From positions 37,572 through 101,571 of the forward strand of contig CAKZOW010000117.1 in the NCBI GenBank assembly GCA_937138345.1: a stretch of DNA of 64,000 bases, in the 5' to 3' direction. Position 1 is the stretch's first letter; every line of letters starts with the position of its first letter. The position numbers and the translations under genes were made by a program. Under the pieces are notes generated by a model. It made no database searches and was not told the DNA's origin. It worked only from the letters and a program-made list of their open reading frames with translations. This stretch comes from an uncultured archaeon (GTDB taxonomy: Archaea; Nanobdellota; Nanobdellia; Woesearchaeales; UBA583). Of the stretch, positions 730-20,944 are shown in pieces.

Positions 730-1563
730 TTATTTGTCAAAACGATATAATTTCATGTTGTCAATCAAAGTAACTAATTTATCTGCGTATTTCTTATCAG
801 TTGCGTAACCTGCTTTGGATAATCCTTTTGCCCAAGATTTATAATCCGAGCGCGGAATTTTTCTCAAATGCTGATAACGACTACGTTGTAAAAACAAGCT
901 GTGTGCTCTATAGCTTTCCCAAACACTATTATAGTTTCTAAAAAAGTCTTTATGTGAATCATCAGAATGATTTGAGCAATGTCCTGATTTACAATTTCTA
1001 GCAAAACATTTAATGCCAAAATGATTGTTGTTATTGACTGCCAAACGACTCTGACCTGCGTCACTTTCTAATAATCCTTGAGCGAGTGTGATGCTTGCTG
1101 GAATGCCATATTTTTTCATTTCCTTCACAGCTACCAATGAAAAACGCTTTACATAATCATTACAAATGGTATTCTTTTGTGCTACAATTTTTGGATTGAC
1201 ATTGTTTCTTTTCGCGTAAGTCGGATTTAAAACAAAAGCAATATTTGGAAACTGTGAAGCACTTGAAGATCTCGGTTTCTGTTCTGTATTCTTTGTCGAT
1301 TTAGGTGCTGGTAACACTTTTTTCGGAGTATTAATCACATCATTAGTAACGACATTAGCTACTTTAGCTACCTTTTCTTGTATTACTTCAACAATAGGAG
1401 ATTTCTCAATAGAAACACCTTTATTTATGTTAATATCAACATGAAAACTAAACATAAAGGGTAGCATGAATATAAACGCTAATTTATATACTATACTAGC
1501 ATTCTGTACTCTTTTTACTGCATTTGTAGTTTTGTATACTACAAGATTTTTTAAATTTTTCAT
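730..1563 (-). CDS. peptidoglycan hydrolase, mannosyl-glycoprotein endo-beta-N-acetylglucosaminidase (FlgJ/LytD-type) domain, with an N-terminal hydrophobic anchor; candidate endolysin
   Basis: 277 aa. The segment ASITLAQGLLESDAGQSRLAVNNNNHFGIKCF matches the glucosaminidase domain signature AQ..LESg.g.S.la...NNlFGIK. The N-terminus carries a hydrophobic stretch (IVYKLAFIFMLPFMFSF) after a basic region. Confidence 0.7.
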   Translation of the reverse strand: MKNLKNLVVYKTTNAVKRVQNASIVYKLAFIFMLPFMFSFHVDININKGVSIEKSPIVEVIQEKVAKVANVVTNDVINTPKKVLPAPKSTKNTEQKPRSSSASQFPNIAFVLNPTYAKRNNVNPKIVAQKNTICNDYVKRFSLVAVKEMKKYGIPASITLAQGLLESDAGQSRLAVNNNNHFGIKCFARNCKSGHCSNHSDDSHKDFFRNYNSVWESYRAHSLFLQRSRYQHLRKIPRSDYKSWAKGLSKAGYATDKKYADKLVTLIDNMKLYRFDK

Positions 1564-1695
1564 TTTATTGATTTTAGTTATTAAATAGTCGCAAAGTAAG
1601 GAATCGAACCTCTTCTCGTATTATTTAAAGCGTACACCAGTACCTAATTGCGATTTGACAGGTTTTCACCTGCCCTAGATTTAAAGTTCTAGTTC

Positions 1696-2103
1696 TTATT
1701 TGTTTAAAACAGCTAAGATATTACTTTCGACCTTCTCTACATCAAATAACATTCCTACAAATATTTCTACCACATAACGATTAACCACTACCCCTAATTT
1801 GGATATACCTGGTGTTAATCGAATTTCTTCAATTATATCATCAGTTAAGTCAAAATTAGTATTAAGATAGTTTCCTTCTATTTTCACTTTATATTCAAAA
1901 GTATCTGCTTCAAATTTTTTATGTATTTTAAATTCTTTTAAAGGTGTAAAACCTTCCAGTAATAATCCTTTTTTAGTTCTACGAATTGTGTAAGGCGTTA
2001 GTGATAAATGAGGAGTAGTATCTTCTTTATAAGTACGTCCTTCTTTTGTAAAAGAATCTCTAACACTTCCATTTACCACATAAAGGTATTCAGCGCTTTC
2101 CAC
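1696..2103 (-). CDS. hypothetical protein
   Basis: 135-aa ORF in 30% GC DNA; no recognisable motif. Confidence 0.55.
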   Translation of the reverse strand: MESAEYLYVVNGSVRDSFTKEGRTYKEDTTPHLSLTPYTIRRTKKGLLLEGFTPLKEFKIHKKFEADTFEYKVKIEGNYLNTNFDLTDDIIEEIRLTPGISKLGVVVNRYVVEIFVGMLFDVEKVESNILAVLNK

Positions 2104-2179
2104 TATTCTTTCAATAACTCCTTCCTGCTGTAAAACATAAACTTCTCATAAAAATTGTATTTAAAAAGTGAATAATTAT

Positions 2180-2494
2180 TTATTTACCAAATCTCCTATT
2201 CCTAAGTTTAGAATGTTTATTTCTAAACTCTTGATAGTTTGCTTCAGTGTTCTCAGATGCTTCATCAACCATTCTCTGAGCTGCTCTAGTCAGTTGATTG
2301 TAACTAAAATATCTACTAAGTAACGCTGCTCTAGTATTATGATGTTGTCTACCATCAATATCACGGATATTAATAGTATCTCCCTCATACCAGTTTTCTT
2401 TACCTGTAGCCTTACTAATACGCTTCACATCTCCATTATTTGAAAGATGTGTAGTCATATTAATTGATTCTAATTCTGGAATTTCTTTCCACAT
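2180..2494 (-). CDS. hypothetical protein
   Basis: 104-aa ORF, tightly packed with the next gene (2497). Confidence 0.5.
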   Translation of the reverse strand: MWKEIPELESINMTTHLSNNGDVKRISKATGKENWYEGDTINIRDIDGRQHHNTRAALLSRYFSYNQLTRAAQRMVDEASENTEANYQEFRNKHSKLRNRRFGK

Positions 2495-2496
2495 AA

Positions 2497-2769
2497 TTAT
2501 ATATGTTTAAGCATTTCTGAAAAATCTATTAAAGCTCTATAATATCCTTGTTCTTCAATCCTAAGTACAGAGAACTCCTTACCATCCCAATCTTTAATGT
2601 TTTGAGAACTTTCTTTAAGAGAATCTTCTATTTGCGCTTTTAAGTCAATTAAATCAGTTTCCTTGCTTTCAATTTTGATTTGTCTAGGAATCTTATCTAA
2701 TTTTTTTGTTAAAAGAGTTCCGACATCTTCTAAAATATCAGCCTTAATTTCTTTTATTAATTCTTCCAT
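2497..2769 (-). CDS. hypothetical protein (acidic, coiled-coil-like)
   Basis: 90-aa ORF in gene-dense minus-strand packing. Confidence 0.5.
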   Translation of the reverse strand: MEELIKEIKADILEDVGTLLTKKLDKIPRQIKIESKETDLIDLKAQIEDSLKESSQNIKDWDGKEFSVLRIEEQGYYRALIDFSEMLKHI

Positions 2770-2891
2770 AATTACTCAAGTATAGGCTCTACGCCTGATT
2801 TATTAGGTAATGGTTTTCCCTCAAACATTTTCTTAATGTGAGGTTTCTGCTCTTCTAAAATTTTTTTTGATTTTTTACTCATAATTATTTT

Positions 2892-3329
2892 TTAATAATG
2901 AAAAACGTGGAAAAAGCCGTTATTAGCCATTTCATAAACATCATCTCTCCAATCTTGGTCGAAGAAATACTCATCTCTTGAAGGCAACTCGTCCTTATCT
3001 AAGTAACCTAGTGTACATCTCTGTAGTTTCTCATCATAGAGTACCACAAAGAATATATTCTCTAAAGAATTATCTAAGTCGTTTACATGAATTTTCTTAG
3101 CTATATCTCTATTAGGCTTATCCTTAAACAATAGTACGATGTTTATTTTAGTGTCAGGATTGCAAGCAAGGTATACTGTACTTGTGTCAATATCTACAAA
3201 TTGATTTCCCTCTAATTGAAATGTTCCAATAGAAGTATCTGAACAATGTACGTGTTTGAATCCTGTACAACTACTTAACCAAGCTATTGCTAGGATGATT
3301 AAGTAGATCGATAACTTATTTTTCTTCAT
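2892..3329 (-). CDS. putative lipoprotein
   Basis: 145 aa. N-terminus MKKNKLSIYLIILAIAWLSSC is a signal peptide with lipobox LSSC. Confidence 0.6.
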   Translation of the reverse strand: MKKNKLSIYLIILAIAWLSSCTGFKHVHCSDTSIGTFQLEGNQFVDIDTSTVYLACNPDTKINIVLLFKDKPNRDIAKKIHVNDLDNSLENIFFVVLYDEKLQRCTLGYLDKDELPSRDEYFFDQDWRDDVYEMANNGFFHVFHY

Positions 3330-3427
3330 TTTCTAATTATTTTAATTGTTCCTCTGAAATTTTACCAGATTTATTTAATTCAAATAACTCATCAATTTCT
3401 CGTTGAGCGTTTTCACTTCTTATCCAT

Positions 3428-3871
3428 TTACTCATGATATACATTTATGTTGAATGATTTAATACCATATGCCTGATATGTACTTTTCAGTACGTCATTT
3501 ACATACAACCTGATTTCTATGATTTCTGAACCATTTTCAATATAATCAGTTGCAAATTTAAGCCTTTGTCTAAATCTATTGTGATTACTTAATTGTTCAT
3601 CCCAGTAAAACTGAATTATTCCTATAGCATCATAGTGAGTATATGAGAACATTTTCGTCAATGATACAGAAGATATTTTTATATCATCTATGTACATTTT
3701 CTCTGGAGTAATAGAAATACTATTAGTATCACCAAACTCCTGTAAATCTTTGAATAGAGTATTTAACTCCAATTCTTTCTGTAATTCTACTACTGGTACT
3801 ACTGGTAATACTTCATCTGTACAAGACGAAAATAACGACAGTAATGCTAAAAATGTTAATAATTTTTTCAT
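3428..3871 (-). CDS. putative lipoprotein
   Basis: 147 aa. N-terminus MKKLLTFLALLSLFSSC is a signal peptide with a Cys lipobox. Confidence 0.6.
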   Translation of the reverse strand: MKKLLTFLALLSLFSSCTDEVLPVVPVVELQKELELNTLFKDLQEFGDTNSISITPEKMYIDDIKISSVSLTKMFSYTHYDAIGIIQFYWDEQLSNHNRFRQRLKFATDYIENGSEIIEIRLYVNDVLKSTYQAYGIKSFNINVYHE

Positions 3872-4197
3872 TATTTTTGTTTTAGTTAATTAAATTTAGG
3901 TACATTTTCAATATTAGATAACACTTCTTCTAAATAAAAAGCTTTTCCTACAGTTACTATAGCAGAGTACTTACTAGTTACTGTTACGCTATTTACTCCC
4001 GTTACGCTTTCTAACAAGTCTCTATTCTTTTCATTGTTAAAAATTCCCTATCCCCTTCTGAATAACGGTAAATAGATTCTGTAGTACTAGACATACCAAT
4101 AGCCATTAAAAATAATTTACTGAAAGCTCCAAAGCTACTGTAGTGTCTTTCGCCTTTTTTTAATTTGTTAATTACGTCTATAACTCTCATAATTTTA

Positions 4198-4599
4198 TTA
4201 TTTATAACGAGTAAATCCGTAGTGTTTAGCTATTTTATTTAATGTAGGGATACCATAATTAGTATAATTATCAATGTCATCTACAATTTCTCCATAAAAA
4301 GAATTATCATCTAACCAAATCCATGTTTTAAAATGTAGCATAGAACGTCCTGCCGAAAGACCTCTTTCATTTTCTGCTTTATTATATGCAAAATCTAGAT
4401 AATCTAGTATTTCTTTTTTAGGATCTGTACTAATTACCCATTTTACTGTACCAGCTTCAACTTCTTTAACATATTCCTCTTTTAAAAATGTTTTAGCATT
4501 ATCAAAAGTCATATAGTTAATTAAATCATTTTTTTGTGTTCCAAACAAATCACTAACCTTTTGGAATCTAACTTTAATTTCTTCTTGATTTCTTATCAT
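4198..4599 (-). CDS. hypothetical protein
   Basis: 133-aa ORF; the iteron-like repeats lie immediately upstream of its start. Confidence 0.55.
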   Translation of the reverse strand: MIRNQEEIKVRFQKVSDLFGTQKNDLINYMTFDNAKTFLKEEYVKEVEAGTVKWVISTDPKKEILDYLDFAYNKAENERGLSAGRSMLHFKTWIWLDDNSFYGEIVDDIDNYTNYGIPTLNKIAKHYGFTRYK

Positions 4600-4600
4600 T

Positions 4601-4713
4601 TTTACTTATTTTGAATAGTTTAATATAACTTTTACTTATAATTAATTTAAAGTTTATAAGTTTTACTTATGATAAGTTTTACTTATGTCTTATCATTTTT
4701 ACTTATAATTAAC
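4601..4713. repeat. iteron-like direct repeat cluster: five copies of TTTTACTTAT(A/G), flanked by a 19-bp direct repeat TCTTATCATTTTTACTTAT
   Basis: Copies at about 4601, 4631, 4661, 4677 and 4697. The 19-mer occurs at about 4591-4609 and 4688-4706. The cluster lies in the intergenic region between the 4198-4599 and 4839-5240 genes. Confidence 0.7.
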
Positions 4714-4838
4714 CAAAAACATACAAATTGTCATAAAAAAACTGTAACTTTGGGACAGGTCGAACAACCTGTAAGAAGTGAAGGACTTAACTTACAAACT
4801 TGTTTTGTGTTCTTCCTTCCTATTAATTAAAGCAATTA

Positions 4839-5240
4839 TTAATACCCATACAACTTTTTAAATCTAATTTCATTCTTTTTAGATAATCTACTCAGTTCAT
4901 GTAGTTCCATCCAAAGGAAGTAAGCATCTACATGTTTTTTCCACAGATCATTTAGTTTATCTTTTACGTGATATAACCGTACATATTCATAATGTTGTAA
5001 TTGTGGGAATAGTCTATATTCCATCCAGTAAGTATAATTATAACCAGACCCTCCTCTTTCTGGCTTCCACCATTGTCCTAGTCTTTTAATGTACTCCTGC
5101 CTTTTTCCTTTACTATTACCTCTGACTAAATACTCACCATCAGGTAAATATTTATCATTATACTTAGTAGGATTATCTACTTTGATATAATCGCTATCAG
5201 GGAAGTAATCTGGATCGTATTCTACTGATATAAATTTCAT
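4839..5240 (-). CDS. hypothetical protein (aromatic-rich)
   Basis: 133-aa ORF. It is followed, in minus orientation, by a hairpin ACAGG..CCTGT at about 4747-4767 and then a T-run. Confidence 0.55.
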   Translation of the reverse strand: MKFISVEYDPDYFPDSDYIKVDNPTKYNDKYLPDGEYLVRGNSKGKRQEYIKRLGQWWKPERGGSGYNYTYWMEYRLFPQLQHYEYVRLYHVKDKLNDLWKKHVDAYFLWMELHELSRLSKKNEIRFKKLYGY

Positions 5241-5319
5241 ATTATTTAGTTTTTACCACCCAGTTAATAATGAAGATTAACCTCCACTTTAACATGGATG
5301 GCTATGATTAATTTACCTA

Positions 5320-5469
5320 TCATGGTAAAATTATTGCTCCTGCTATGATCAATATTAATCCCATGGCAATTATACCAAAAGAAATTATTTTGAATTTATC
5401 AGATTTTACTACTTGATTGCCTATAATACCTAGTATTATAAGCAAAAATCCTAATACTATCGCTATCAT
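5320..5469 (-). CDS. small two-TM membrane protein (49 aa); holin-like candidate
   Basis: Read from the minus strand as MIAIVLGFLLIILGIIGNQVVKSDKFKIISFGIIAMGLILIIAGAIILP*. Two hydrophobic helices. Below the ORF-track size cut-off. Confidence 0.4.
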   Translation of the reverse strand: MIAIVLGFLLIILGIIGNQVVKSDKFKIISFGIIAMGLILIIAGAIILP

Positions 5470-5555
5470 AATTTAATTTTTAATAAGTTTATAAAATAGG
5501 GAGGTAAAATAATTTACGCTGTTAAATATTTAAAACCCTCCCTGATGAAAAATAG

Positions 5556-5627
5556 AGCCAATGGTAGGAATCGAACCTACTTACTACTAAGATTGTAACC
5601 TAGCGCATTCCATAATGCTACATTGGC
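5556..5627 (-). tRNA. tRNA (72 nt) with apparent anticodon ACA (A34); isotype uncertain, Cys-decoding if genuine
   Basis: Cloverleaf derived by hand: acceptor GCCAATG/CATTGGC, D-stem GCAT/ATGC, anticodon stem CTAGG/CTTAG with loop TTACAAT, T-arm GTAGG-TTCGATT-CCTAC, discriminator T. Confidence 0.6.
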
Positions 5628-5703
5628 AAAAACCAACCACGGTTAAAAATAAATTGAATTAAAAATGGATTAATAAATTAAAATTGTGTGGTTGGTGTAC
5701 TTT

Positions 5704-6423
5704 TTATAGTTTCTTTGGTAAATTTTTCTTTAGCCACTTTAATCTAGGAGATATATTAGCTCTTGTCCAGTAATAACCTGTGTTATTTTGACGCTCTTTT
5801 CTTATTTTTACATTTATGTATTCACTCTCTGCTTTAGTAATTAATTTACTTTCTAATAAAGAAGCTAACCATGAGCAGAGTCCTGTTTTAAAATAATCTT
5901 TGTTATGCTTAAATACTTTAAGTAATTTTTTTTGTGTACGGATTTCACCAGTCATATGAATATGTATCCAGTCTATTCTGGATTGCATATCATCGCGTGA
6001 CCAATAAAAAACACTAGCTCTTTTAGTTCGGTGTTTATTTATTAGTAATTTTATATATATAAACTCTTCTTGTAAGATTTTATTCTTACTTAATAAATCA
6101 CAGGCACTGAAACACAGAGTATTCCGTGTACAGTCTCTTTTATTACTGTTAGTTAATTCCTCTAATAATAATAAACCTAATCTCTTTTTGTTAGATATTA
6201 GATTGGCTATTAACCAATCTTCTCTAACCTCCCAATTACCTCTTTCCCATTTATAGCTTGCATCAGTTTCTTCTACATCTTTATGTAAGCTATTAATGTA
6301 TTTCTCTTCTTGATCAGTTATAATTTTTAATTCTACAAGATAATGTGTGTAAGCACATAGACCTGTTTTAAAAAATTCTTTATTTTCTATAAGAATTTTT
6401 AGTAATTTCTTTTTACTTATCAT
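5704..6423 (-). CDS. hypothetical protein with internal tandem duplication
   Basis: 239 aa. Two homologous halves: KKLLKILIENKEFFKTGLCAYTHYLVELKIIT and KKLLKVFKHNKDYFKTGLCSWLASLLESKLIT. Confidence 0.6.
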   Translation of the reverse strand: MISKKKLLKILIENKEFFKTGLCAYTHYLVELKIITDQEEKYINSLHKDVEETDASYKWERGNWEVREDWLIANLISNKKRLGLLLLEELTNSNKRDCTRNTLCFSACDLLSKNKILQEEFIYIKLLINKHRTKRASVFYWSRDDMQSRIDWIHIHMTGEIRTQKKLLKVFKHNKDYFKTGLCSWLASLLESKLITKAESEYINVKIRKERQNNTGYYWTRANISPRLKWLKKNLPKKL

Positions 6424-6629
6424 AATTTAAAATTTGATAGAATGAATTCTAGCGTCTCTATATCAAGGTTAGTAGAATCCATATTTTTTATGATATAATA
6501 CTCTGCTTCGAATAAATGAAACAGAGCTTTTTCTGCTTGCTCTTGGTAACCTAACTCATGAATTAGATTACCTACCTTAGCTAACTGCTCTGGGAACAAT
6601 TTAGCTAAGGTATAGATAATTTCTTTCAT
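6420..6629 (-). CDS. hypothetical protein
   Basis: 69-aa ORF; its stop overlaps the next start (ATGA coupling). Confidence 0.4.
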   Translation of the reverse strand: MKEIIYTLAKLFPEQLAKVGNLIHELGYQEQAEKALFHLFEAEYYIIKNMDSTNLDIETLEFILSNFKL

Positions 6630-7000
6630 ATTCCTAACTGTTTTTCCAATTGTGTTATTACTTCTGTTTGAAGGTATAACAGTTCTGCCAACTGGTTATT
6701 AGTTATTGTAGTTATTTTTAACCTATTTATATTTACTACAAAAGTAGGTGAATTATGTTCATTGGACAAATTTATATTATAATTCAAAGACATTCCATCT
6801 ATTACAATCATAGTTTGTTTCATCTCAAAAGCATACTTATAAGTATCAGACCCTTTAGGATTACTAAACCCTAATAAGTTATGATGTCTCACCTGTGTAT
6901 GTGTGCGGTGTAAATACATAGAATTCCAGCTTAATATTTCTAAAGCTGAAGGGATGTAATTTAAATGAATTACTCTGTCTTTTACTTCTATTGTTTTCAT
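6626..7000 (-). CDS. hypothetical protein
   Basis: 124-aa ORF, overlapping-coupled to its neighbours. Confidence 0.5.
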   Translation of the reverse strand: MKTIEVKDRVIHLNYIPSALEILSWNSMYLHRTHTQVRHHNLLGFSNPKGSDTYKYAFEMKQTMIVIDGMSLNYNINLSNEHNSPTFVVNINRLKITTITNNQLAELLYLQTEVITQLEKQLGI

Positions 7001-7002
7001 AA

Positions 7003-7239
7003 CTAAAATTTATCATCTGTATGACCTAATTTTTTTCTAAAGCCATGTACCCTATGAGCATCTCTTCTACTCATGTTACCATTTCTACCTTCTTCAGGTT
7101 CGATACCTTCATCTTTATACTTTTTCTTTATGCTTAGTATTTTAGATACTAGTCTTAATAAGAATGGTAGCTTTATTTCCTCTTCTGGGAGGTCTGTAAT
7201 TTTTGTATTATCTGTGCTCATTTCTATTGATTTATCCAA
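7003..7239 (-). CDS. hypothetical small basic protein
   Basis: 78-aa ORF. The overlapping plus-strand ORF 7073-7267 is judged spurious. Confidence 0.4.
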   Translation of the reverse strand: MDKSIEMSTDNTKITDLPEEEIKLPFLLRLVSKILSIKKKYKDEGIEPEEGRNGNMSRRDAHRVHGFRKKLGHTDDKF

Positions 7240-7479
7240 AGAAGAATGTTCTAAGGAAATTTATTAAATGGTTTTCACTATATACTTTACCTAATGATTG
7301 AGTTTCTGTACCATAAGTTATAGCAGCTATAACACAATCGTCTCTTTGAGAGTAAGTGACTACTATAGCACACCAGCTACTTCCCCCACAGATGAATTCT
7401 ATGCTTTGTTAGCTGGTTGCATTAAATTAGTTCGTTACATTCTTTAATTTAGCAATTTCTAGACCTGCCAATTGGTAGG

Positions 7480-7839
7480 TTATAATGATTTAATATATCT
7501 AGATGTTTTAACCATACGAGGATGATACTCTAATAATGCTTCAGCACTACTGTAAATACCATATTCTCCTTCGACTTCATATAAGGTATTTTTATCCTTG
7601 CAGTTAAATATAACCTCAATATCCTGTACCCTATACTTAGGGTTCGATTTCTCTACAGAGGCTAAGACTGCGTGTGCTTGACTCACAAACTCTTCGGCAT
7701 CACAAGCACAAGAGTCAAAGTTTTCTACACTCTTATCGCCATCGTAGAAACTAACTACGTAATTTGGTTCTCCGAATCTAGGACACGGATTAAAAACTAG
7801 GGTAGGATTTGAAGTTCTCTCTTTATTATATTGTATCAT
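7480..7839 (-). CDS. hypothetical protein
   Basis: 119-aa ORF. Confidence 0.5.
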   Translation of the reverse strand: MIQYNKERTSNPTLVFNPCPRFGEPNYVVSFYDGDKSVENFDSCACDAEEFVSQAHAVLASVEKSNPKYRVQDIEVIFNCKDKNTLYEVEGEYGIYSSAEALLEYHPRMVKTSRYIKSL

Positions 7840-8032
7840 AATTTTTGCTTTACGTATATAAAATGTTTAACCACGAGAAATGTGGCTTTTTTAAAAGGGT
7901 TAAAAGTATGGGGTTTTTGGACTGGGTTCATAACCTCCACACTTTCAACCATTTACAACAGAATTTAAATAAAAACACAGGCAAAGTGATAACTTTTTAC
8001 CACTCACCTGTGTAACATCCAAATCAACCTTT

Positions 8033-8455
8033 TTAATTCTTTTGAATTTTAGTTTTCCCTAGCTTACCGTTCCTAACTACCAGTACATGGTAACTAGATT
8101 TTCCAGTAGGTTTTTTAACTGAGCGCCAAACAGTTTTACCTTCCAGTGTATAAGTAGTTTTATAACCATAAGACTTTTTATACTCAGTGCCAGATTTAGA
8201 CACTTTATTCAAATAGTGTTTACCACTATCTGAAACTAGTACTGTAAAGTTTTGCCCATCGACCACAAGGTTGACAGTTTCATTTACAGATTTAGCTACA
8301 TTAGTACTAACATAACTAAAATTTACAGGAGTAGTGTCGTCACCCATGTTAATAGATGCAGCCATAACCTCACCATCTGTAGATGTAGAACAGGACCATA
8401 TCAATAAGACAAACAATAAGATTGTGCCTCCTAGGCATTGTATAAATACTTTCAT
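8033..8455 (-). CDS. putative lipoprotein / secreted protein
   Basis: 140 aa. N-terminus MKVFIQCLGGTILLFVLLIWSCS has a signal peptide and a Cys lipobox. Confidence 0.55.
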   Translation of the reverse strand: MKVFIQCLGGTILLFVLLIWSCSTSTDGEVMAASINMGDDTTPVNFSYVSTNVAKSVNETVNLVVDGQNFTVLVSDSGKHYLNKVSKSGTEYKKSYGYKTTYTLEGKTVWRSVKKPTGKSSYHVLVVRNGKLGKTKIQKN

Positions 8456-8622
8456 GATATTTGAATTTTACCCTAAATCTCAATTGATATAGGGTTTCCG
8501 AAGGAAAAGAAATAAATACATAGAGCGAAGCGATACGCCAACTCTAAGAAACGCTCGTTAAAAAAAGATTTAGTAAAAGATAAGGCTAGTACTACCGAAG
8601 TAATACTAACCTATACTATTAA

Positions 8623-8985
8623 CTAGAAGTCGTCCTCATCGAAGTCTTGGTCGAATTCCAACACTAAAGAGTCAGCTACTTTCTGTTGGTACATCTTGTT
8701 TAACTGAAGAGAGTAGTTCAAACGCTTCAATCCTGGTTTCTTAAAGGTGATACCAGAGAATACGTGAGGGTTCTCTACTGTAGTATCGTCTGGAGCTGTA
8801 GTTTCCTCCCAGTTAAGTTTGTTACCGATAGCCATAGTGTAAGGAGTATTACGCCCTAAGCCTAAGTCAGTGAACAAAGTCTGTAAGTCTCTTTTAGAAA
8901 GCCAGATTGAGCCATTAACCAAGTAAGAGATACGACCATCAGATAATTTTACTCTACGAACAGTTTTGATTACGAAAGATTGCAT
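8623..8985 (-). CDS. hypothetical protein with acidic C-terminal tail ending in Phe (SSB-like tail)
   Basis: 120 aa ending ...LEFDQDFDEDDF, which resembles the acidic C-terminal protein-interaction tails of bacterial SSB and T7 gp2.5. Confidence 0.5.
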   Translation of the reverse strand: MQSFVIKTVRRVKLSDGRISYLVNGSIWLSKRDLQTLFTDLGLGRNTPYTMAIGNKLNWEETTAPDDTTVENPHVFSGITFKKPGLKRLNYSLQLNKMYQQKVADSLVLEFDQDFDEDDF

Positions 8986-9325
8986 AATATTAATTTTTGT
9001 AATAGACCCAGAGAATTAACCACAATATTGTAGCTCTTAGCATCTCAAGGTCTAATGATTTGAAAATAAAGGTTTTAAAACGATGCAAATGGATATATCG
9101 CTTCCACAAGCCGAGTTCTTTACTAGTCGGTTTCCTCAATAACCTCAAGGGTTATCAGCACGTCAGTAAAGCTTACATCGTTTTTAAAACTCTAGGGGGT
9201 CTTACCCCGTCAAGATAAGACCGGTGGAGTTAAGGAAGGGAGGATGTCCAATGTTAACATATACAACGAAATAAATATAATGTTTTATTGAAAAAAATTG
9301 AAAAAAAATTTCGTATCTTTACAGT

Positions 9326-10198
9326 ATGAAAGGAATATACGGAATAACAAATGCAGTAAACGGTAAAGTCTATGTAGGGTCTAGTAAGTCTATCTCTAGA
9401 AGATGGAAGGAACATAGAAAAATGCTAAGAGGTAATATTCATCACTCTAGTCACTTACAGTACTCTTGGAACAAATATGGTGAAGAAAACTTTACTTTTG
9501 AAGTTATTGAAGAAGTAGAGGATGTAGAGAGAATCTTTGAAAGAGAGGCTCATTGGATAATAGAATGGAATACTCTAGATGCCAAGTACGGTTACAACAT
9601 GTGCCTACCAAACGGAGGAGCAAAAAGAGAAGAATCTATACAAAAATTAAGAGACCACTGGAATGTAACAGTACCTCATAATTACATAGGTTGTCATAAA
9701 GAATACCTAGAAATGAAGGCTAAAGGGTATGAGAAGGTAGGTATGAAATGGTTAAAGAAGGATAGGGTTAAAGGATTTAGCCGTACTAAAAGAGCAGTAG
9801 ACCAGTACGACTTTAATTTCACTTTAATAGGTTCTTACGATAGTATAATAGATGCTGCTAGAGCTACAGGTTTATCAGACAAGATAGGTGGTTCTTGTAG
9901 AGGAGATAAGAAGTCTTGTGGTGGATTCTATTGGAAGTTTAGAGAAGAGTCCTTAGAGGAGCTTAAAACGCGTGTACAAATAAAAGATACTAAACTGATG
10001 TGCGGGATTACTCAAGTAAAAGTATACGAATACCAAGGGAAAAGAAGTCTACATAAGAAAAATTTCGATACTTACAGAAAGAACAAAGCTATAAAAATGG
10101 TAGAAGTATACATGGTACCATCCAAGATAGAGAGGAAGAGATTAACACCAGAACAAATCAGTATATCTAACTACAAATATCTAGAAACACTTAATTAA
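9326..10198 (+). CDS. GIY-YIG family homing endonuclease (free-standing)
   Basis: N-terminus GIYGITNAVNGKVYVGSSKSISRRWKEH carries the GIY...YVG motif with the conserved Arg and Glu; the C-terminal half is basic and DNA-binding-like. 290 aa. Confidence 0.8.
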   Translation: MKGIYGITNAVNGKVYVGSSKSISRRWKEHRKMLRGNIHHSSHLQYSWNKYGEENFTFEVIEEVEDVERIFEREAHWIIEWNTLDAKYGYNMCLPNGGAKREESIQKLRDHWNVTVPHNYIGCHKEYLEMKAKGYEKVGMKWLKKDRVKGFSRTKRAVDQYDFNFTLIGSYDSIIDAARATGLSDKIGGSCRGDKKSCGGFYWKFREESLEELKTRVQIKDTKLMCGITQVKVYEYQGKRSLHKKNFDTYRKNKAIKMVEVYMVPSKIERKRLTPEQISISNYKYLETLN

Positions 10199-10217
10199 TT
10201 TTTACTACCTTTATAGT

Positions 10218-10595
10218 ATGAAGGACAAATATTGGGATGCAGTGTACAGACCAGATAACCCTAGGGAATGTGGTATACTAACAGAAGACGATGAGTTGGT
10301 ACTAGACGTACTTGATGTAGATTACTCGACTATAGCCTACATAGTCGGTATACATAATAATTCTGTTAGAGATAGGAGAGAGCCTAGGAGACTAATGTTC
10401 TCGGAGACTGGTGACAGATTCGAAATGTTAGTACAAAATAAGTATAATACAGGAGAAGCACTTCATAAAGGCGAGTTAAAGATAACTGTAGTTAAAGGTA
10501 ATAAAAGGACTAGGTTACAGAAGTTTTTGAATAGGATTTACAAAAAGTGGTATCCTGAAATTAATACAATAAAAGTAGAGCATGAGAGAGATTAA
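10218..10595 (+). CDS. hypothetical protein
   Basis: 125-aa ORF. Its upstream element TACCTTTATAGT-ATG resembles the one at 9326 (TATCTTTACAGT-ATG). Confidence 0.5.
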   Translation: MKDKYWDAVYRPDNPRECGILTEDDELVLDVLDVDYSTIAYIVGIHNNSVRDRREPRRLMFSETGDRFEMLVQNKYNTGEALHKGELKITVVKGNKRTRLQKFLNRIYKKWYPEINTIKVEHERD

Positions 10596-10884
10596 AGATA
10601 TTATACCTATTACAGCTAAAAGATTAGGTATACCTGAAGAGGAATTAGCTAGACATGTAAAACAGTATGAGAAAGATTTAAAAGACGCTTTAGCTAATAA
10701 GCCTTATTTAGAGTACGATTTTTACTTCCTAGGTAAACTAAGGTACATGAAAAATCCTCTTAAAAAAGTAATAAAGAACTTTAGTAACAAGGGATTTGAC
10801 GTAGAGCACTATAAGAAAGTTTTGAAACTTTTCGACATAGATTACGAAATAAAACGTAAAAGATGGAATAAGAGTAGTGAATAA
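10582..10884 (+). CDS. hypothetical protein
   Basis: 100-aa ORF. Confidence 0.45.
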   Translation: MREIKDIIPITAKRLGIPEEELARHVKQYEKDLKDALANKPYLEYDFYFLGKLRYMKNPLKKVIKNFSNKGFDVEHYKKVLKLFDIDYEIKRKRWNKSSE

Positions 10885-10924
10885 TAATTTTTTTTATTAT
10901 ATTTGTGTATACAAATGAATAAAA

Positions 10925-11257
10925 ATGAAAAGAACGCACCCTATAGTGTTAAAAGTAGGTAAAGTAGTGTTAGTAGAATTTCAACTGAAATGGATGCTAC
11001 ATCCTAAACCTATTACAGGTAAAGATTTAAAAGTACTAGCTTATGTATTCCTATATAAAGGAAAAGCTATTGAGAAGATGTTAGAGGACGGAGTATCTAA
11101 GAGTAAGAAGAGTTTAGAGAACACTATATCGACTTACAGGAAATTAGGTGTAATACAGGGATTCCAAGAGAAGACGATACTTAATCCGGCTCTTAACGCT
11201 TTGACACAAGATTTGTCATACACAATAAATTTTAAACTAGATGATACGTTGGATTAG
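10925..11257 (+). CDS. hypothetical protein
   Basis: 110-aa ORF. Confidence 0.45.
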   Translation: MKRTHPIVLKVGKVVLVEFQLKWMLHPKPITGKDLKVLAYVFLYKGKAIEKMLEDGVSKSKKSLENTISTYRKLGVIQGFQEKTILNPALNALTQDLSYTINFKLDDTLD

Positions 11258-11582
11258 GAACTATAGAAAGTCTACTAAAAAGCTTACGTGGGAAAATGTA
11301 AAGAACTACTTTGCCGCTAAGAGGAGACAAAGGAGAATACAGTTAATTGAGGATACTTTTTTTTCTGGTCCAGGACTAAAACCAATACCGGGAGCTAAGA
11401 CAGTAGTTTGGCGAGAAAAACAAGTAAAGAAATTCTCACCAATCTGTTTAAAGCAAGGTTATTGTAAAGAATGTTACTGTTCGTTTGAGGATGGTTTATT
11501 ATACGAAGAAAAAGCCTGTGAAGGTGGATGCTACCCAAATTGGGAAGAATCAAAAAAATTAGCAAATGATATTCAAGAGTAA
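11241..11582 (+). CDS. hypothetical Cys-rich protein
   Basis: 113 aa with a CKECYCS...CEGGC cysteine cluster; possible metal binding. Confidence 0.45.
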   Translation: MIRWIRNYRKSTKKLTWENVKNYFAAKRRQRRIQLIEDTFFSGPGLKPIPGAKTVVWREKQVKKFSPICLKQGYCKECYCSFEDGLLYEEKACEGGCYPNWEESKKLANDIQE

Positions 11583-11880
11583 AAATATTAAAGTAGGAAG
11601 TAAAGTTAGGACAGATGCTCCTTTCACTTTCGAAGGTAAAGCAAGTACAGATTATAAAAATATTAAAGCGACTCCTAGTTGTGGATGTACAGGTGCCACA
11701 TTTAGAGTACTAAGAAATAGTCAATGGCAACCTTCAACAAGGGTGGCAGAAGGCGAAGCCTTTAGAGTTACAGGTAAGTTGAATAACGTACCTACTAATG
11801 GATCTGTTACTAAAAAAGTGACTATTACGGCTACGGGATTGGCTCCTATTCCTTTACTATTCACAATGTATTTAGTATGA
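11566..11880 (+). CDS. DUF1573-like protein
   Basis: 104 aa. Contains PSCGCTGATF, resembling the SCGCT signature of DUF1573 (a Bacteroidota family, recalled from memory). Confidence 0.4.
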   Translation: MIFKSKNIKVGSKVRTDAPFTFEGKASTDYKNIKATPSCGCTGATFRVLRNSQWQPSTRVAEGEAFRVTGKLNNVPTNGSVTKKVTITATGLAPIPLLFTMYLV

Positions 11881-12749
11881 TTTTTCACGCAGATACTCAT
11901 TCCTATTACAATGGAGATGAAAAATACTTAGGCGTTACTTCTACAATAGGTAAAATGAAACAACCTACTGATTGGGATCAGATAGCAGAGAATTACGTGA
12001 ATAAAAAAACACGTAGAGAATTGTTAGAGGACCTAGCTAAAAAGTGGAAGATTACTTTCAGACAAGCTAGAGAGAAGTGGGGTAATGAAGAGTTTACAGG
12101 TCCTTGGATTAGAACTGTCTGGAAAGATAAATCAGAAAGAGCATTAGCAGGTGGTAGTTTCTTCCATGATTGGAAAGAGATACAAGATTCTGATACTTGC
12201 TTCTACAACCCAGTTGTAAATAACAAGAAGACTCTTTTAGACCTGAATGAGTTAACTGATGGTACTTACTTAGAATTAGGAGTATACGCACATCAGTACT
12301 ATACTTGTGGACAAGTAGATAAGATTAAATTTGAAGGAAAGTACTTTGATATTTCTGATTACAAAACAGATGCAGAGAAACCTTCAACAGAAACTAAGGC
12401 TTATTGGAATAGTAATACAGGTAGAAGTGAGGTAAAGAAGTTTATATCTCCCTTATCACATATACCAGAAACTAATTACTACAAACATGCCTTACAGATG
12501 TCTACTTATTCTAGGATGTTAGAATTATACAAAGGTTATAAGTGCAGGAGTTTGACTGTGAAGTATGTACACACAGAATATCGACATCCCTTACAAGCTG
12601 GAGATGATTTAGTTATACATGAAGAACCTGAGTTCGATAGAGTACGAGTATTCTTAGGGTTAGAAGATATTGAATTACCTTATTTAAAAAAAGAAGCAGA
12701 AGCTATCTTAAAATACAATAGAAATGCCTACAGACAAAAAAACCGATGA
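11877..12749 (+). CDS. PD-(D/E)XK nuclease, RecB/Cas4/YqaJ-like
   Basis: 290 aa. GQVDKIKFEGKYFDISDYKT supplies the D...(D/E)xK motifs, followed by ALQMSTY (the QhxxY motif of RecB-family nucleases). Confidence 0.55.
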   Translation: MIFHADTHSYYNGDEKYLGVTSTIGKMKQPTDWDQIAENYVNKKTRRELLEDLAKKWKITFRQAREKWGNEEFTGPWIRTVWKDKSERALAGGSFFHDWKEIQDSDTCFYNPVVNNKKTLLDLNELTDGTYLELGVYAHQYYTCGQVDKIKFEGKYFDISDYKTDAEKPSTETKAYWNSNTGRSEVKKFISPLSHIPETNYYKHALQMSTYSRMLELYKGYKCRSLTVKYVHTEYRHPLQAGDDLVIHEEPEFDRVRVFLGLEDIELPYLKKEAEAILKYNRNAYRQKNR

Positions 12750-13569
12750 ATATTACAAGCGACTAGATATAATATCTGCTAAAAAGTTTTATGCTGGACG
12801 TGATTCTTGTATAAATTCTTCGCAATATCTAGGATGGAATGGTATGGCTACTAGTATAACGGATTCAACTGTTTCATCAAAAACAAAACTAATAGGAGGT
12901 ACTTTTATACAAGAAAGTCCTTATATGGTGCAAATATGTAAATCAAACAAAATGCAATCAACATTATTTTTAGACGTAGATAATACATTGATAGTGTCCA
13001 AAGATGGTTCACTGTTTCCAACAGTAGATAACTGGGTATTCAAAGCAGGTATTTTGGAAACTTTGATTAAGAAAGTCAGGGAGTATGACCAAGTGATTCT
13101 AGTAACTAATCAGGGCGGTGTAGATGCAGGTTTCAAAACACCTCAAGAAGTAGAACGCTATATCAGTGAAGTTTGTCACGGATTGGAAGTAGTTACTAGT
13201 ATTCAGGCGAAAACATTCATTGCGTATATAAATGAGGACAGAAAGCCAGTATTAGGTAATTTCATCAAGGATTTAACTAGGCTTAATGAGTTAACTCACT
13301 TAGAAGAGTATGCAGGACTTAACTATGATGCTAAAGTGAATGTGTTTGATAACATTAATCTTAATCAATCTACAATGGTAGGAGATGCTTCAGGATTAAC
13401 TAGAGTATTAACTAAGAAAGGTAAATTTGTTAGATTAGGAAAAGATTTAGAGATAGCGGAAGAAGATGAAGGTTATATCGTTAAAAAAGACTTCTCAGAT
13501 TCAGACAAATTATTTGCGGAGAATATGGGAGTATTTTATCAAGATATTGAAGAATTTTTAAACAAATAA
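12724..13569 (+). CDS. HAD-superfamily phosphatase (subfamily IIIA / polynucleotide 3'-phosphatase-like)
   Basis: 281 aa. LFLDVDNTLI is the DxDxT motif I; VILVTNQGGV is the TNQ motif typical of HAD IIIA enzymes (GmhB, Pnk phosphatase). Confidence 0.6.
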   Translation: MPTDKKTDEYYKRLDIISAKKFYAGRDSCINSSQYLGWNGMATSITDSTVSSKTKLIGGTFIQESPYMVQICKSNKMQSTLFLDVDNTLIVSKDGSLFPTVDNWVFKAGILETLIKKVREYDQVILVTNQGGVDAGFKTPQEVERYISEVCHGLEVVTSIQAKTFIAYINEDRKPVLGNFIKDLTRLNELTHLEEYAGLNYDAKVNVFDNINLNQSTMVGDASGLTRVLTKKGKFVRLGKDLEIAEEDEGYIVKKDFSDSDKLFAENMGVFYQDIEEFLNK

Positions 13570-15607: not shown

Positions 15608-15728
15608 TTTTTTAAAACAGTTAGATGCTGGAGCATTAGTAGAAGAGATGTTTCCAGAGTTTGTCGAAGATGGAGAAGGCGGTGTTCGTATAGATAGTAA
15701 CTATGATTCTAAACAACTAGGAGCTGAA

Positions 15729-15800
15729 ATGGCTTTTTAGCCCAAATGGACGATGTTGTGCTGTTGTCGGTCGTTTTCTTTTTTTCGGCAGTAGCACAAT
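15729..15800 (+). repeat. related GC-rich imperfect inverted repeat (TTGTGCTGTTGTCGG ... CGGCAGTAGCACAA) with GGACGATGTTG motif
   Basis: Long imperfect hairpin with a T-rich loop immediately upstream of the DUF4326 gene. Confidence 0.5.
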
Positions 15801-15807
15801 TTTAATT

Positions 15808-16284
15808 ATGGATGTATCATTGAAAGGACTTGCACAAGAAATGCGAGAAAATTTATTAGAAGAAATTTCAAATTTTAAAAAGAAAATATACATGAATGGA
15901 ACAATAATTAATAATCCAAAACGAATAAAAAGACAATATTACAAGAAACTTCCACCCAAATCAAAATCAGTAACAAGACCTGGCAAGTGGGGCAATCCTT
16001 TTTTAATTGTTTTAGAGGATGATGTTTATTTTGTCAAAGATAAAAGCGGAAATTATTGGGGCAATAATAATGAAGGATATAAAACAAAAGAATTAGCAGC
16101 AAAAAAATCGGTTCAATGTTTTAAAGGCTATTTATCAGCTAAAGTAATGAAAGGCGAATTAAGTCTTTCAGCTTTTGACAATATTGACAATATAGCTTGT
16201 TTTTGTAAATTAGAAGAAACTTGTCACGCTGATATTATTATTGATTTTGTTTCTCAATATCGAAATGGTCAGACTTTTTTCTAA
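15808..16284 (+). CDS. DUF4326-family protein (NADAR/YbiA-related fold per the literature)
   Basis: 158 aa. Contains TRPGKWGNPF, ...KKSVQCFKGYL and IACFCKLEETCHADIIIDF, matching the DUF4326 hallmarks (WGNPF, then C.C....CH near the C-terminus). Confidence 0.65.
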   Translation: MDVSLKGLAQEMRENLLEEISNFKKKIYMNGTIINNPKRIKRQYYKKLPPKSKSVTRPGKWGNPFLIVLEDDVYFVKDKSGNYWGNNNEGYKTKELAAKKSVQCFKGYLSAKVMKGELSLSAFDNIDNIACFCKLEETCHADIIIDFVSQYRNGQTFF

Positions 16285-16345
16285 TGACCGACAATGCCTG
16301 CAACCGCAGCCGTATGAGCGGCTGTGAAATATGGACGCTGTTGCA
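16283..16345 (+). repeat. related GC-rich hairpin element (CAGCCG-TATGAG-CGGCTG) with flanking motifs GACCGACAATGC and GGACGCTGTTGC
   Basis: It shares the GAC(C)GACAATGC left motif with 18233 and the GGACG(A/C)TGTTG right motif with 15735 and 17121. Confidence 0.6.
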
Positions 16346-16390
16346 TTTATTATGCACTCGTCTTTTTTTAAACTTTTTTAGACTTTTAAA

Positions 16391-17071
16391 ATGAAAAACA
16401 CTTATTCAGATTTTTTAAATTTATTTAGTACTTTTTGTGTGGAGGTAGGTCTGACCGAAAACCATGCAAAGGAAATGATGACGACATTCGACATTCGTTT
16501 TGATTATATCGAAGCTTATGGAGACAATGAACAAGGCTTAGAATTAGCTTATAATTATTATAAAACAACTGTAATTCCTCACAAAGTAGCTGTTTTTAAA
16601 GAAGCTATGAAAATGGAGGACGCATTTAAAAGACAAAGAAAAGAAGATTTAATCGTTCAACTTCGTGACCATGACTTGTCTAAATTTTGCTTTGAAGAAC
16701 TTGCTTATGCCGATGTAGATTTTAAAAACTTTAAAGACAACCCAAAATGGGTTATAGATAATTTTAAAAAAAGTTGGCATCACCATAAATCAGTTAACCC
16801 ACATCATCCAGAATATTGGTTTGATGTAAAGAAAGACGGAACAGCAAATCCAATTAAAATTCCGACTCATTTTTTAGCTGAAATGGTTGCAGATTGGCGA
16901 GGTGCAGGGATTACTTATGGAAACCCTATTGGGTATTGGTTAAAAAAAAATTTACACACTTTTCGTTTTCATAAAGAAACGGCTATGGAGTTGGCTGTAC
17001 TTTTGGCTAAATACTGTCAAATAGAAACAAAACTAAAAGATGACAGTGATGAAGTTTTGTTTTGTGTTTGA
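16391..17071 (+). CDS. hypothetical protein (His-rich segment HHHKSVNPHHPEYW)
   Basis: 226-aa ORF flanked on both sides by GC-rich hairpin repeat elements. Confidence 0.55.
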   Translation: MKNTYSDFLNLFSTFCVEVGLTENHAKEMMTTFDIRFDYIEAYGDNEQGLELAYNYYKTTVIPHKVAVFKEAMKMEDAFKRQRKEDLIVQLRDHDLSKFCFEELAYADVDFKNFKDNPKWVIDNFKKSWHHHKSVNPHHPEYWFDVKKDGTANPIKIPTHFLAEMVADWRGAGITYGNPIGYWLKKNLHTFRFHKETAMELAVLLAKYCQIETKLKDDSDEVLFCV

Positions 17072-17080
17072 TGGTGCATA

Positions 17081-17374
17081 ATGTCTGGAACAATGCACGG
17101 TCACGGCTTTTGCCGTGGCTGGTCGATGTTGCTTTTATTAGAGGGCGTTTTCTTTATTTTTTTATTTATGAGTTTTAAAATCGGCGACAAAGTACAATAC
17201 TCTATATCATATTTGACAAAAAAGAATATACATTCAATGGATATTGTTTTAGCTGCCTTTGTTGTGGATGGATTTGATGTTTATTTTGGATGCGATAAAG
17301 AATTAAGATTAAAAAGAAAAGATGGCGTTTATATTTATGCGAACGCAAAAGATTTAGAGAAAATAATTGATTGA
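17081..17374 (+). CDS. hypothetical protein; annotated start probably too far upstream (true start likely Met near 17170)
   Basis: The first about 29 codons are read through the 38-bp GC-rich repeat at 17087-17124. The downstream part (MSFKIGDKVQYS...) has normal AT-rich coding character. Confidence 0.4.
   Translation: MSGTMHGHGFCRGWSMLLLLEGVFFIFLFMSFKIGDKVQYSISYLTKKNIHSMDIVLAAFVVDGFDVYFGCDKELRLKRKDGVYIYANAKDLEKIID
17087..17124 (+). repeat. 38-bp GC-rich repeat GGAACAATGCACGGTCACGGCTTTTGCCGTGGCTGGTC (copy 1), containing hairpin CACGGC-TTTT-GCCGTG
   Basis: Identical 38-mer at 18248-18285. GC content is far above the roughly 30% of its surroundings. Confidence 0.85.
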
Positions 17375-17691
17375 CATTTGTTTTAATTCAAGTACAAAAA
17401 AAAATTAAGAATATGAAACTTACAAAAAGACAAATACAAAAAATTAGAACAGCTCATAAAAAAGCATTGAGACTGGAGGAACTTTTATCTAGTGCAAGGC
17501 AAGATTTGTCTTTTGTTATTTCATCAATCACAAAAATAGAGGGTAATGTTGATTTTCTGCAAGGCGATGGTTTCGGTTTTACACCAGAAGTAGACAATGA
17601 TACACATATACCTGTTGATGAATTATTAAATTTTGCAGAAAAAGGAAGAGATATAAATATAGAGTTGGTATTAGATAATTTATCTATTTAA
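17371..17691 (+). CDS. hypothetical protein (start possibly at internal Met near 17413)
   Basis: 106-aa ORF. Confidence 0.45.
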   Translation: MTFVLIQVQKKIKNMKLTKRQIQKIRTAHKKALRLEELLSSARQDLSFVISSITKIEGNVDFLQGDGFGFTPEVDNDTHIPVDELLNFAEKGRDINIELVLDNLSI

Positions 17692-17795
17692 TGCCCTCTA
17701 ATGCTTAGCTCGGTGACTGGTGGTGACGCCTGTCACCGCTGGGCAATGAGCGTTCTTATTGTCGGCTGCTTCATTGCGCTAATGCTCGTTCTCAA
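17692..17795 (+). repeat. GC-rich hairpin element (GGTGAC-GCCT-GTCACC) with CTAATGCT direct repeats
   Basis: Hairpin at 17722-17737. The listed ORF 17701-17886 is probably an artefact of this element. Confidence 0.5.
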
Positions 17796-17851
17796 CTATT
17801 CGATTTTTTCAAATAGTTCAATTTGTTTTTTCACTCATTTTAATAAAAAAC

Positions 17852-18232: not shown

Positions 18233-18247
18233 TTGACGACAATGCTA

Positions 18248-18285
18248 GGAACAATGCACGGTCACGGCTTTTGCCGTGGCTGGTC
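18248..18285 (+). repeat. 38-bp GC-rich repeat (copy 2), identical to 17087-17124
   Basis: Exact direct repeat. The upstream flank TGACGACAATGC resembles TGACCGACAATGC at 16283. Confidence 0.85.
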
Positions 18286-18399
18286 ATGGAGGATTGAAAA
18301 TGTATCTAAAGCAGGGTGGACCTATCACAGGAATTATGTACAATGGTCGATTAGTAAAAGACGTAAAAAAGTTTTTAAAAATATTTGAATTAATAGAGG

Positions 18400-20921: not shown

Positions 20922-20944
20922 CTATTCTTAATCAAAATTAAATT

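Follow-up and report, generated by a model that had tools for sequence, protein, structure and literature searches.

The DNA window analysed here is 64,000 nucleotides long and, to judge from its sequence, is part of the ~128-kb genome (G+C 33%) of an uncultured, deeply divergent marine crAss-like phage. Both its terminase and its portal hit PHROG families of the crAss type; the identity of the terminase to that of any deposited crAss-like phage is below 30%. Genes are read leftward up to position 8985 and rightward from 9326, and the ORF calls confirmed that the 340-nt gap between them (8986–9325) separates two divergent gene blocks. The first leftward gene (8623–8985, minus strand) encodes a 120-aa protein that the family search assigned to no known family. 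The first rightward gene (9326–10198, plus strand) encodes a free-standing GIY-YIG homing endonuclease (Pfam GIY-YIG, E=1.3e-12), for which no close homologue was found anywhere, the best match being 34% identical. No DNA similarity to the gap region was detected in 50,697 phage records. At the far end of the window, an open reading frame of more than 3,466 codons (~53603–64000, plus strand) is absent from the list of the ORF tool because it runs off the window end; it may encode a giant virion protein or an RNA polymerase typical of crAss-like phages.

Independent assemblies of the phage were retrieved by exact look-up of the flanking proteins, from metagenomes that include project PRJEB22134, which covers aquaculture systems in Shandong, China (PMC9710629). 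Contig L021 (80 kb), which belongs to the same phage, is identical to the window over 977–13329. When positions 12593–13518 of this contig were compared with 1–976 of the window, 19 substitutions were seen, clustered in 747–976 at the 3′ end of the endolysin gene, and left of 737 there was no similarity. The pattern at 737–976 looks like a recombination boundary between strains.

The inverted repeat and the nested hairpins

Every motif named in the original prediction was found where it had been placed. The left arm GGTTTTAAAACGATG (9071–9085) contains the perfect 10-bp palindrome GTTTTAAAAC (9072–9081), and the right arm CATCGTTTTTAAAAC (9176–9190) contains the near-palindrome GTTTTTAAAAC (9180–9190). 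The arms enclose 90 nt and form a 14-bp inverted repeat with one bulge (9072–9085/9176–9190), with the palindrome centres ~108 bp apart. Two local hairpins lie inside, one at 9111–9130 with CCGA (9111–9114) and TCGG (9127–9130) around an ACTAGT palindrome, the other at 9139–9155 with ATAACC (9139–9144) and GGTTAT (9150–9155) around TCAAG. To the right of the arms, at 9195–9222, the hairpins GGGGG-TCTTA-CCCC (GGGG(G) at 9195–9199, CCCC at 9205–9208) and GGTCTTA...TAAGACC (GTCTTA at 9199–9204, TAAGAC at 9216–9221) overlap each other.

The folding energies were compared with those of shuffled sequences. As RNA, the 128 nt that include both arms were more stable than all 200 shuffles (z −4.4 on the plus and −3.2 on the minus strand), and as DNA they reached z-scores of −3.6 and −4.6. 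The 90-nt interior alone, which holds the two nested stems, was no more stable than its shuffles (z −1.5 on the plus and −0.7 on the minus strand), and the region 9186–9270 with the GGGG/CCCC and GTCTTA/TAAGAC stems gave no folding-energy signal (z +0.2 and −0.85). The folding signal of the 128 nt comes almost entirely from the terminal inverted repeat.

Among inverted repeats with arms up to 150 nt apart, this one ranks top in the window. When the 64-kb window was shuffled 20 times with its dinucleotides preserved, 10 of the shuffles also contained an inverted repeat with one bulge and 14 or more Watson-Crick pairs (on average 0.9 per shuffle, compared to 2 in the real sequence). Since the shuffles match the stem in half of the cases, the stem alone is not beyond chance window-wide. 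What is notable is its place inside the 340-nt gap and the coincidence of its arms with the independently shown ends of a repeat unit. The local G+C content of 43–46%, compared to 33% in the genome, is mildly unusual for a spacer. The gap had been described as far more structured than the usual spacers of this DNA; this holds for the 128-nt fold and for the rank of the repeat, but not for the stem when the whole window is considered, nor for the nested and downstream hairpins, which fold no better than their shuffles.

A tandem repeat with variable copy number

The arms of the inverted repeat are the ends of a 114-bp repeat unit, here called U (9072–9185); in natural populations it is found singly or as a tandem array of two or more. 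The SPAdes contig L005 from another study reads U|GAAATAAGAGA|U, with the junction ...CATCGTTTTT|GAAATAAGAGA|GTTTTAAAACGATG.... Its second copy, GTTTTAAAACGATG...CCTCAA, is identical to 9072–9148 over 77 nt, where the contig ends. The junction truncates the right arm of the first copy, indicating that the array is a tandem duplication and not two insertions.

The same boundaries appeared as breaks in other assemblies. A MEGAHIT k127 contig of 127,896 nt starts at 9072 and ends at 9185, its ends overlapping by 114 nt and not by 127; these are the branch points expected if a one-copy (L1-U-R) and a two-copy (L1-U-L2-U-R) allele coexist. L006 and L022, k=31 contigs that Logan assembled from two separate runs, stop at the same base, 9101 (9071+30), which is where a k=31 graph is expected to branch if the first base of U has two predecessors. 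A single copy of U is spanned by four contigs (L002, L003, L004 and L021). One run yielded both L003, assembled with MEGAHIT, and one of the broken k=31 contigs, so that both alleles coexist in one sample. Taken together, the boundaries 9072 and 9185 are supported by three different assemblers, three values of k and two studies.

In the two-copy array, the linker L2 is an 11-nt AT-rich diverged copy of the left flank L1 (GAAAATAAAGG compared to GAAATAAGAGAG, three indels in 12 nt), whereas the U copies are identical over the visible 77 nt; the strains are otherwise 99.9–100% identical. We infer that the two-copy form is older and predates the sampled population, and that single-copy genomes arise by recombination between the identical units. 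The interior of U has the same orientation in all five spanning sequences. A 9-bp direct repeat, TTTTAAAAC, at 9073 and 9182 flanks or overlaps U; it overlaps the arms and is itself palindromic.

No other copy of U was found within the window, and the contig obtained to extend the search for dispersed copies beyond the window ends or diverges just to its left. A covariance model of U matched the window copy and both copies in L005, and nothing else. When U-derived patterns were searched in IMG/VR and in the GTDB representative genomes, chance matches alone were obtained (one within coding sequence, the other on a Phycisphaerae contig of high GC content). The GTTTTAAAAC site is not enriched elsewhere in the window. 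A link between U and the neighbouring homing endonuclease was also considered and was rejected; the best match of the endonuclease (34%) lies in an unrelated context.

The locus in related phages

Homologues of the exonuclease gene that lies 2.6 kb right of the gap were found in three Logan lineages with 60–66% identity; IMG/VR had none, and the JGI metagenomes gave two remote fragments alone. As a query for relatives, the 120-aa leftward gene matched only itself. The contigs of the relatives are collinear with the window on both sides of the divergent gap. By tblastn, the 135-aa leftward gene of L010 is 35% identical to the 120-aa gene of the window and the rightward genes are 42–66% identical, and the gap is orthologous to L010 538–1134 and L013 6277–6747.

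U was absent from L010, L011 and L013 when tested by blastn, nhmmer and the covariance model. The paired regions, for which conservation had been proposed as a test, had no counterpart in the relatives by sequence or covariance model, neither the long-range stem nor the nested hairpins. When the gaps of the relatives were scanned by z-score for structured counterparts, their iteron palindromes alone were detected. Covariation within U was not available across the strains, all of which are identical in U. Between the left gene and the G/C hairpin lie 66–75 nt in the relatives and 211 nt in the window, which fits an insertion of ~115–125 nt.

The right part of the gap, which starts with the overlapping hairpins at 9195–9222, can be aligned with the relatives by the GGGG...CCCC hairpin, CAAGnTnAGAC, a G-run, the invariant ATATACAA (9259–9266) and phased A-tracts; neither BLAST nor nhmmer scores this alignment as significant. 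The A-tracts, ATTGAAAAAA twice and then AA (9287–9309), are found at the same place in L010 and L013. ATATACAA together with the A-tracts is the best-conserved piece of the gap (window 9259–9309, L010 ~664–715, L013 ~6416–6460). For the three sequences, RNAalifold gave no convincing conserved fold of the right segment on either strand; the energies were weak (−3.7 and −5.9 kcal/mol) and the covariation terms, at +2.55 and +1.67, were penalties. The ATATACAA/A-tract piece did not fit a sigma-70 or Bacteroidota promoter consistently across the three sequences in either direction, and its ATATACAA core is not a repeated promoter motif of the window, with 14 near-matches compared to 12 expected.

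A further motif, T(T/A)AGACC, which includes the TAAGACC of the overlapping hairpins, has four occurrences in the gap of the window, arranged in two inverted pairs (9003/9049 and 9198/9216), compared to ~0.3 expected for a pattern that was chosen post hoc. The gaps of the relatives have it at 628 and 937 in L010 and at 6288 in L013. It could be a conserved protein-binding site. The inverted pair TAGACC (9003–9008)/GGTCTA (9049–9054) brackets the leftward promoter candidate described below.

Precomputed Pfam annotations list Acb2/Tad1-hairpin-like, phage ProQ-C-like and 'Lockin' domain proteins in the rightward early blocks of the relatives (L010 4774–5073, L013 11843–12154, L013 8015–8344, L011 5900–6190 and L014 3542–3886). 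This suggests that the rightward early block of the relatives holds anti-defence and RNA-binding functions.

Promoter candidates and tests for an RNA

The best sigma-70-like matches in the gap point outward. The rightward candidate, TTAACA-16-TATAAT (9254–9281, plus strand), matches 11 of 12 consensus positions and overlaps the ATATACAA core; the leftward candidate, TAGACC-16-TACAAT (9054–9027, minus strand), matches 9 of 12. Both are consensus matches only. U lies between the two −35 hexamers, and the AT-rich spacer L1, TTTGAAAATAAAGG (9058–9071), is directly upstream of the −35 hexamer of the leftward candidate. A bidirectional promoter or operator region had been among the proposals for the gap. 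At the level of the locus the diverging candidates agree with this, but the flagged stem has no counterpart in the relatives.

The Bacteroidota-type −7 motif TAnnTTTG is absent from the gap and is not enriched in the window, where the two strands have 42 and 54 occurrences, compared to ~38 expected. No recognisable promoter was found upstream of U on either strand, and no promoter-like sequence at a usable distance is common to both linkers. Terminator-like sites, defined as a G+C-rich hairpin followed by a T-run, were absent from both strands of 8700–9600. In the crAss-like phage phi14:2 the middle promoters are sigma-70-like and the early promoters have no recognisable motif; abundant early intergenic non-coding RNAs of unknown function have also been described in this phage (bioRxiv 10.1101/2020.03.07.982082). 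Since crAss-like early promoters have no motif, U may be transcribed.

At the gathering thresholds of Rfam, the whole window contained five tRNAs only, all outside the gap. When 8900–9400 was searched at E up to 10, the four best matches scored 13–15 bits, compared to thresholds of 34–70, and ARAGORN detected no tRNA in the gap. The suggestion of a structured non-coding RNA was thus not borne out: structure in the interior is not significant, searches for Rfam families, tRNAs and terminators gave no match, and the element is not conserved. With G-U pairs counted, the closing helix becomes longer on the minus strand and the 9198–9222 hairpin reaches 11 bp; a U-rich tail follows each unit. The G-U pairs and the tails are weak hints of a minus-strand RNA.

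A purine-rich AAGGAAGGGAGG precedes two tiny ORFs of 15 and 7 codons at 9244–9291 and 9251–9274 on the plus strand; Shine-Dalgarno-like sequences are absent before the other genes here. Since the relatives have no ATG at the equivalent of 9244–9291, the tiny ORFs are probably not coding.

Outside the gap, the tRNA calls differed by tool. ARAGORN called a tRNA with the anticodon ACA at 5555–5627 (minus strand). The tRNA at 19372–19440 (plus strand) was found by Rfam alone and the tRNA-Cys(GCA) at 20846–20922 (plus strand) by ARAGORN alone. A T-arm-like GGTTCGATTCC in the intergenic gap at ~1600–1640 (minus strand) was called by neither. A family of G+C-rich intergenic elements follows directly after the stop codons of five small genes on the plus strand (15725–15810, 16280–16392, 17066–17175, 17690–17800 and 18228–18340). 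In each of them, a conserved AATGC..TGG..AAC precedes a hairpin, which is followed by CTGGnCGATGTTG and a T-run. Their stems differ yet stay paired (GCAGCCG/CGGCTG; CACGGTCACGGC-TTTT-GCCGTGGCTGG; GGTGAC/GTCACC), and the copies 17080–17124 and 18241–18285 are 93% identical. None of the five reached an Rfam gathering score. The evidence for an RNA structure is better for these five elements than for U.

RepL-like genes, iterons and GC skew

The first rightward gene of L010 and L013 matches the Pfam family RepL with 27.2 and 22.9 bits, respectively (cut-off 20.3); in the window this position is held by the GIY-YIG gene. Upstream of its RepL-like gene (1135–1599), L010 has an iteron region (953–1067) with four palindromic iterons (TTAGTGAATAnCACTAA) spaced by 22 bp, and also a 68-nt repeat. 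In L013, the gap contains two copies of a 95-nt direct repeat (6494–6626), and the RepL-like gene is at 6748–7218. Compared with each other, the RepL-like proteins of L010 and L013 show hardly any similarity (E=0.014). In the prototype crAssphage (Carjivirus communis), the origin is predicted just upstream of the first forward-strand repL (PMC10983915).

No RepL-like ORF was found by tblastn and phmmer in the 64-kb window, which is half of the genome. The GIY-YIG endonuclease gene appears to have replaced the RepL-like first gene in this phage. The idea that U is a remnant of the missing RepL-like gene was tried and gave no tblastn signal. Short iterons of ~17–22 bp are absent from the window gap, where direct repeats are limited to ATTGAAAAAA and TTTTAAAAC, each present twice.

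The cumulative GC skew has its minimum at 8683, near the gap. The coding-strand skew is +0.152 and +0.157 in the two gene blocks, and at third codon positions it is +0.07 in the left and +0.21 in the right block, with no change of sign at the gap. Since both blocks have the same coding-strand skew, the switch is explained by gene orientation, and the skew neither supports nor places an origin. A replication origin had been the first candidate for the flagged element, to be checked by GC skew. The locus does match the repL/ori position of the relatives and of the prototype crAssphage, but the element itself is not conserved, and within the window the skew does not place an origin at the gap.

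What the repeat unit may do

We conclude with high confidence that the flagged element is a lineage-specific, copy-number-variable tandem DNA repeat and not a conserved RNA structure; its ends are inverted near-palindromes, whether by chance or by evolution. Since U varies in copy number between strains and is missing from the relatives, it is taken to be a young repeat within the promoter and probable origin region of the phage. As to its role, the reading that we prefer is a tentative one, namely that the spacer between the divergent promoter candidates carries U as a DNA repeat specific to this lineage, possibly with paired protein-binding sites. The long-range stem is formed by the two ends of a unit that is specific to this phage lineage, and U would act as DNA and not as RNA. 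Its near-palindromic ends, GTTTTAAAAC-GATG and CATC-GTTTTTAAAAC, are spaced by roughly ten helical turns (~108 bp). A dimeric DNA-binding protein could bind the GTTTT(T)AAAAC end sites, pair them and loop the spacer, and the looping would tune the divergent promoters and/or the initiation at the neighbouring conserved AT-rich segment. U would then be the lineage-specific counterpart of the differing repeats at this locus in each relative, and the nested hairpins and the GGGG/CCCC and GTCTTA/TAAGAC stems would be incidental or protein-binding motifs rather than an RNA fold.

This role is consistent with the copy-number polymorphism seen in L005, in the MEGAHIT and Logan assemblies and in the single-copy contigs, with the absence of U from the relatives, with a structure that is confined to the terminal inverted repeat, with the position of U between the −35 hexamers, and with the RepL-like first genes and separate repeats at the locus of the relatives. 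On the other hand, no protein that binds GTTTTAAAAC has been identified, and the site is not enriched elsewhere in the window. U lies left of the conserved segment and the iterons of the relatives lie right of it, beside repL, so that the two are not positional equivalents; the window also has neither a RepL-like gene nor short iterons. The promoters are consensus matches only, so transcription might run through U, the identity of the two U copies could reflect gene conversion and not selection, and chance could account for the inverted repeat in 64 kb of AT-rich DNA. A role of U at the DNA level, as paired binding sites in an untranscribed spacer of a control region, is therefore proposed with moderate to low confidence.

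The main competing explanation gives U no function. It would be a recent local duplication or a selfish, MITE-like insertion with palindromic ends that is tolerated in the spacer; we consider this plausible but rather doubtful. The stem would then result incidentally from the terminal inverted repeat together with the TTTTAAAA(C) direct repeats, which are palindromic. Absence from the relatives, an unstable copy number, an unstructured interior, an inverted repeat within chance window-wide and the lack of any promoter, terminator or RNA-family signal all agree with a neutral repeat. Like MITEs, U is ~115–125 bp long, has 15-bp terminal inverted repeats (with one bulge) and AT-rich ends, and is present or absent between relatives. 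The 9-bp direct repeat TTTTAAAAC (9073 and 9182) flanks or overlaps the unit. U differs from MITEs in having one known locus, tandem copies and a target-site duplication that is not clear-cut, and the truncated right arm of the first copy in L005 speaks for tandem duplication and against two insertions. No family members or dispersed second copies were found in the window, the related loci, IMG/VR or the GTDB genomes. In addition, the perfect identity of the U copies beside a linker with three indels hints at constraint or homogenisation, and the two-copy form appears older than the sampled population. Still less probable, and in our view unlikely, is a small structured RNA gene of ~115–125 nt with a closing helix and three or four hairpins, sometimes arranged as an array of two genes, the minus strand being slightly favoured. 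The fold of the unit (z −4.4 on the plus and −3.2 on the minus strand), the raised G+C content, the minus-strand G-U pairs and U-rich tails and the identity of the units next to a diverged linker would suit such a gene, and the highly expressed intergenic RNAs of phi14:2 are a precedent. Like those RNAs, U is non-coding, stands at the head of a group of small genes that are probably early and has no recognisable promoter motif; it differs in being known from sequence alone, in lying in a short gap of 340 nt and in its position upstream of both promoter candidates. The interior hairpins are no better than shuffles, the strains offer no covariation, the relatives have no homologue, Rfam and tRNA searches gave no match even at E up to 10, and neither a recognisable promoter upstream of U on either strand nor a canonical terminator was found. 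It seems fairly improbable that U encodes an as yet undescribed small, structured RNA of marine crAss-like phages, in a recombination-prone array of one or two genes at the head of the early region; if it did, U would offer access, at the level of sequence, to the abundant early non-coding RNAs of phi14:2, which are unexplained.

Less likely than a small-RNA gene, and indeed very unlikely, is that U itself is the replication origin or holds a single-strand initiation or cruciform signal. The locus corresponds to the ori/repL position of the relatives and the prototype crAssphage, the A-tracts and the conserved AT-rich segment adjoin U, the cumulative skew minimum is near, and single-stranded DNA of the unit folds with z-scores of −3.6 and −4.6. 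Against this, it is the neighbouring segment that is conserved and not U, the window has no initiator gene or iterons, and the skew switch is fully explained by gene orientation, with a third-position skew that fits a uniform strand bias. Finally, U might be the physical ends of the genome, as a 114-bp direct terminal repeat or packaging site, or an invertible promoter switch. The 128-kb contig does carry U at both ends, and inverted repeats flanking ~90 bp between divergent operons resemble the invertons of Bacteroidales. A terminal repeat would give U no second left context, yet the k=31 graph branches at 9072 and L005 reads U-linker-U, and four contigs read through a single copy of U. An inversion would break the assemblies just inside the arms, whereas the breakpoints 9101, 9072 and 9185 fit a direct duplication, and the interior has one orientation in all spanning contigs. 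The assembly breakpoints and orientations make both of these possibilities most improbable.

Relation to known systems and significance

Paired distant operators can loop the DNA between or around promoters, as do gal OE and OI, which are ~113 bp apart. U resembles them in having two near-palindromic sites ~108 bp apart, upstream of divergent promoter candidates. It differs in that no cognate regulator is known and the whole segment between the sites is duplicated as a unit; binding and looping are putative for U. The second comparison is with the repL iteron and operator regions of Crassvirales, of a kind also found in phage P1 and plasmids. These share with the window the position at the head of the rightward block, the lineage-specific repeats and an adjacent AT-rich A-tract segment, and L010 and L013 have both a RepL-like gene and repeats. 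The window differs by its GIY-YIG endonuclease in place of a RepL-like gene and by a repeat that has a period of 125 bp and one or two copies, compared to iterons of 17–22 bp, and that lies on the other side of the conserved segment. Lineage-specific repeats in control or origin regions of phages are already known, and U is a new, orphan example.

The eye-catching stem in this AT-rich phage spacer is formed by the ends of an unstable DNA repeat, and the decisive evidence came from assembly breaks and not from folding. The repeat explains why the terminal overlap of the ~128-kb genome is 114 nt and not k-sized, an overlap that could be mistaken for a true terminal repeat. U itself would be of interest only if it is an expressed RNA, or if its copy number tunes early expression or replication. 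For the clade, the strand-switch gap is a fast-evolving control region in which each lineage has its own repeats. Two lineages with a RepL-like gene and one that appears to have a homing endonuclease instead would bear on the proposed RepL-dependent replication of Crassvirales.
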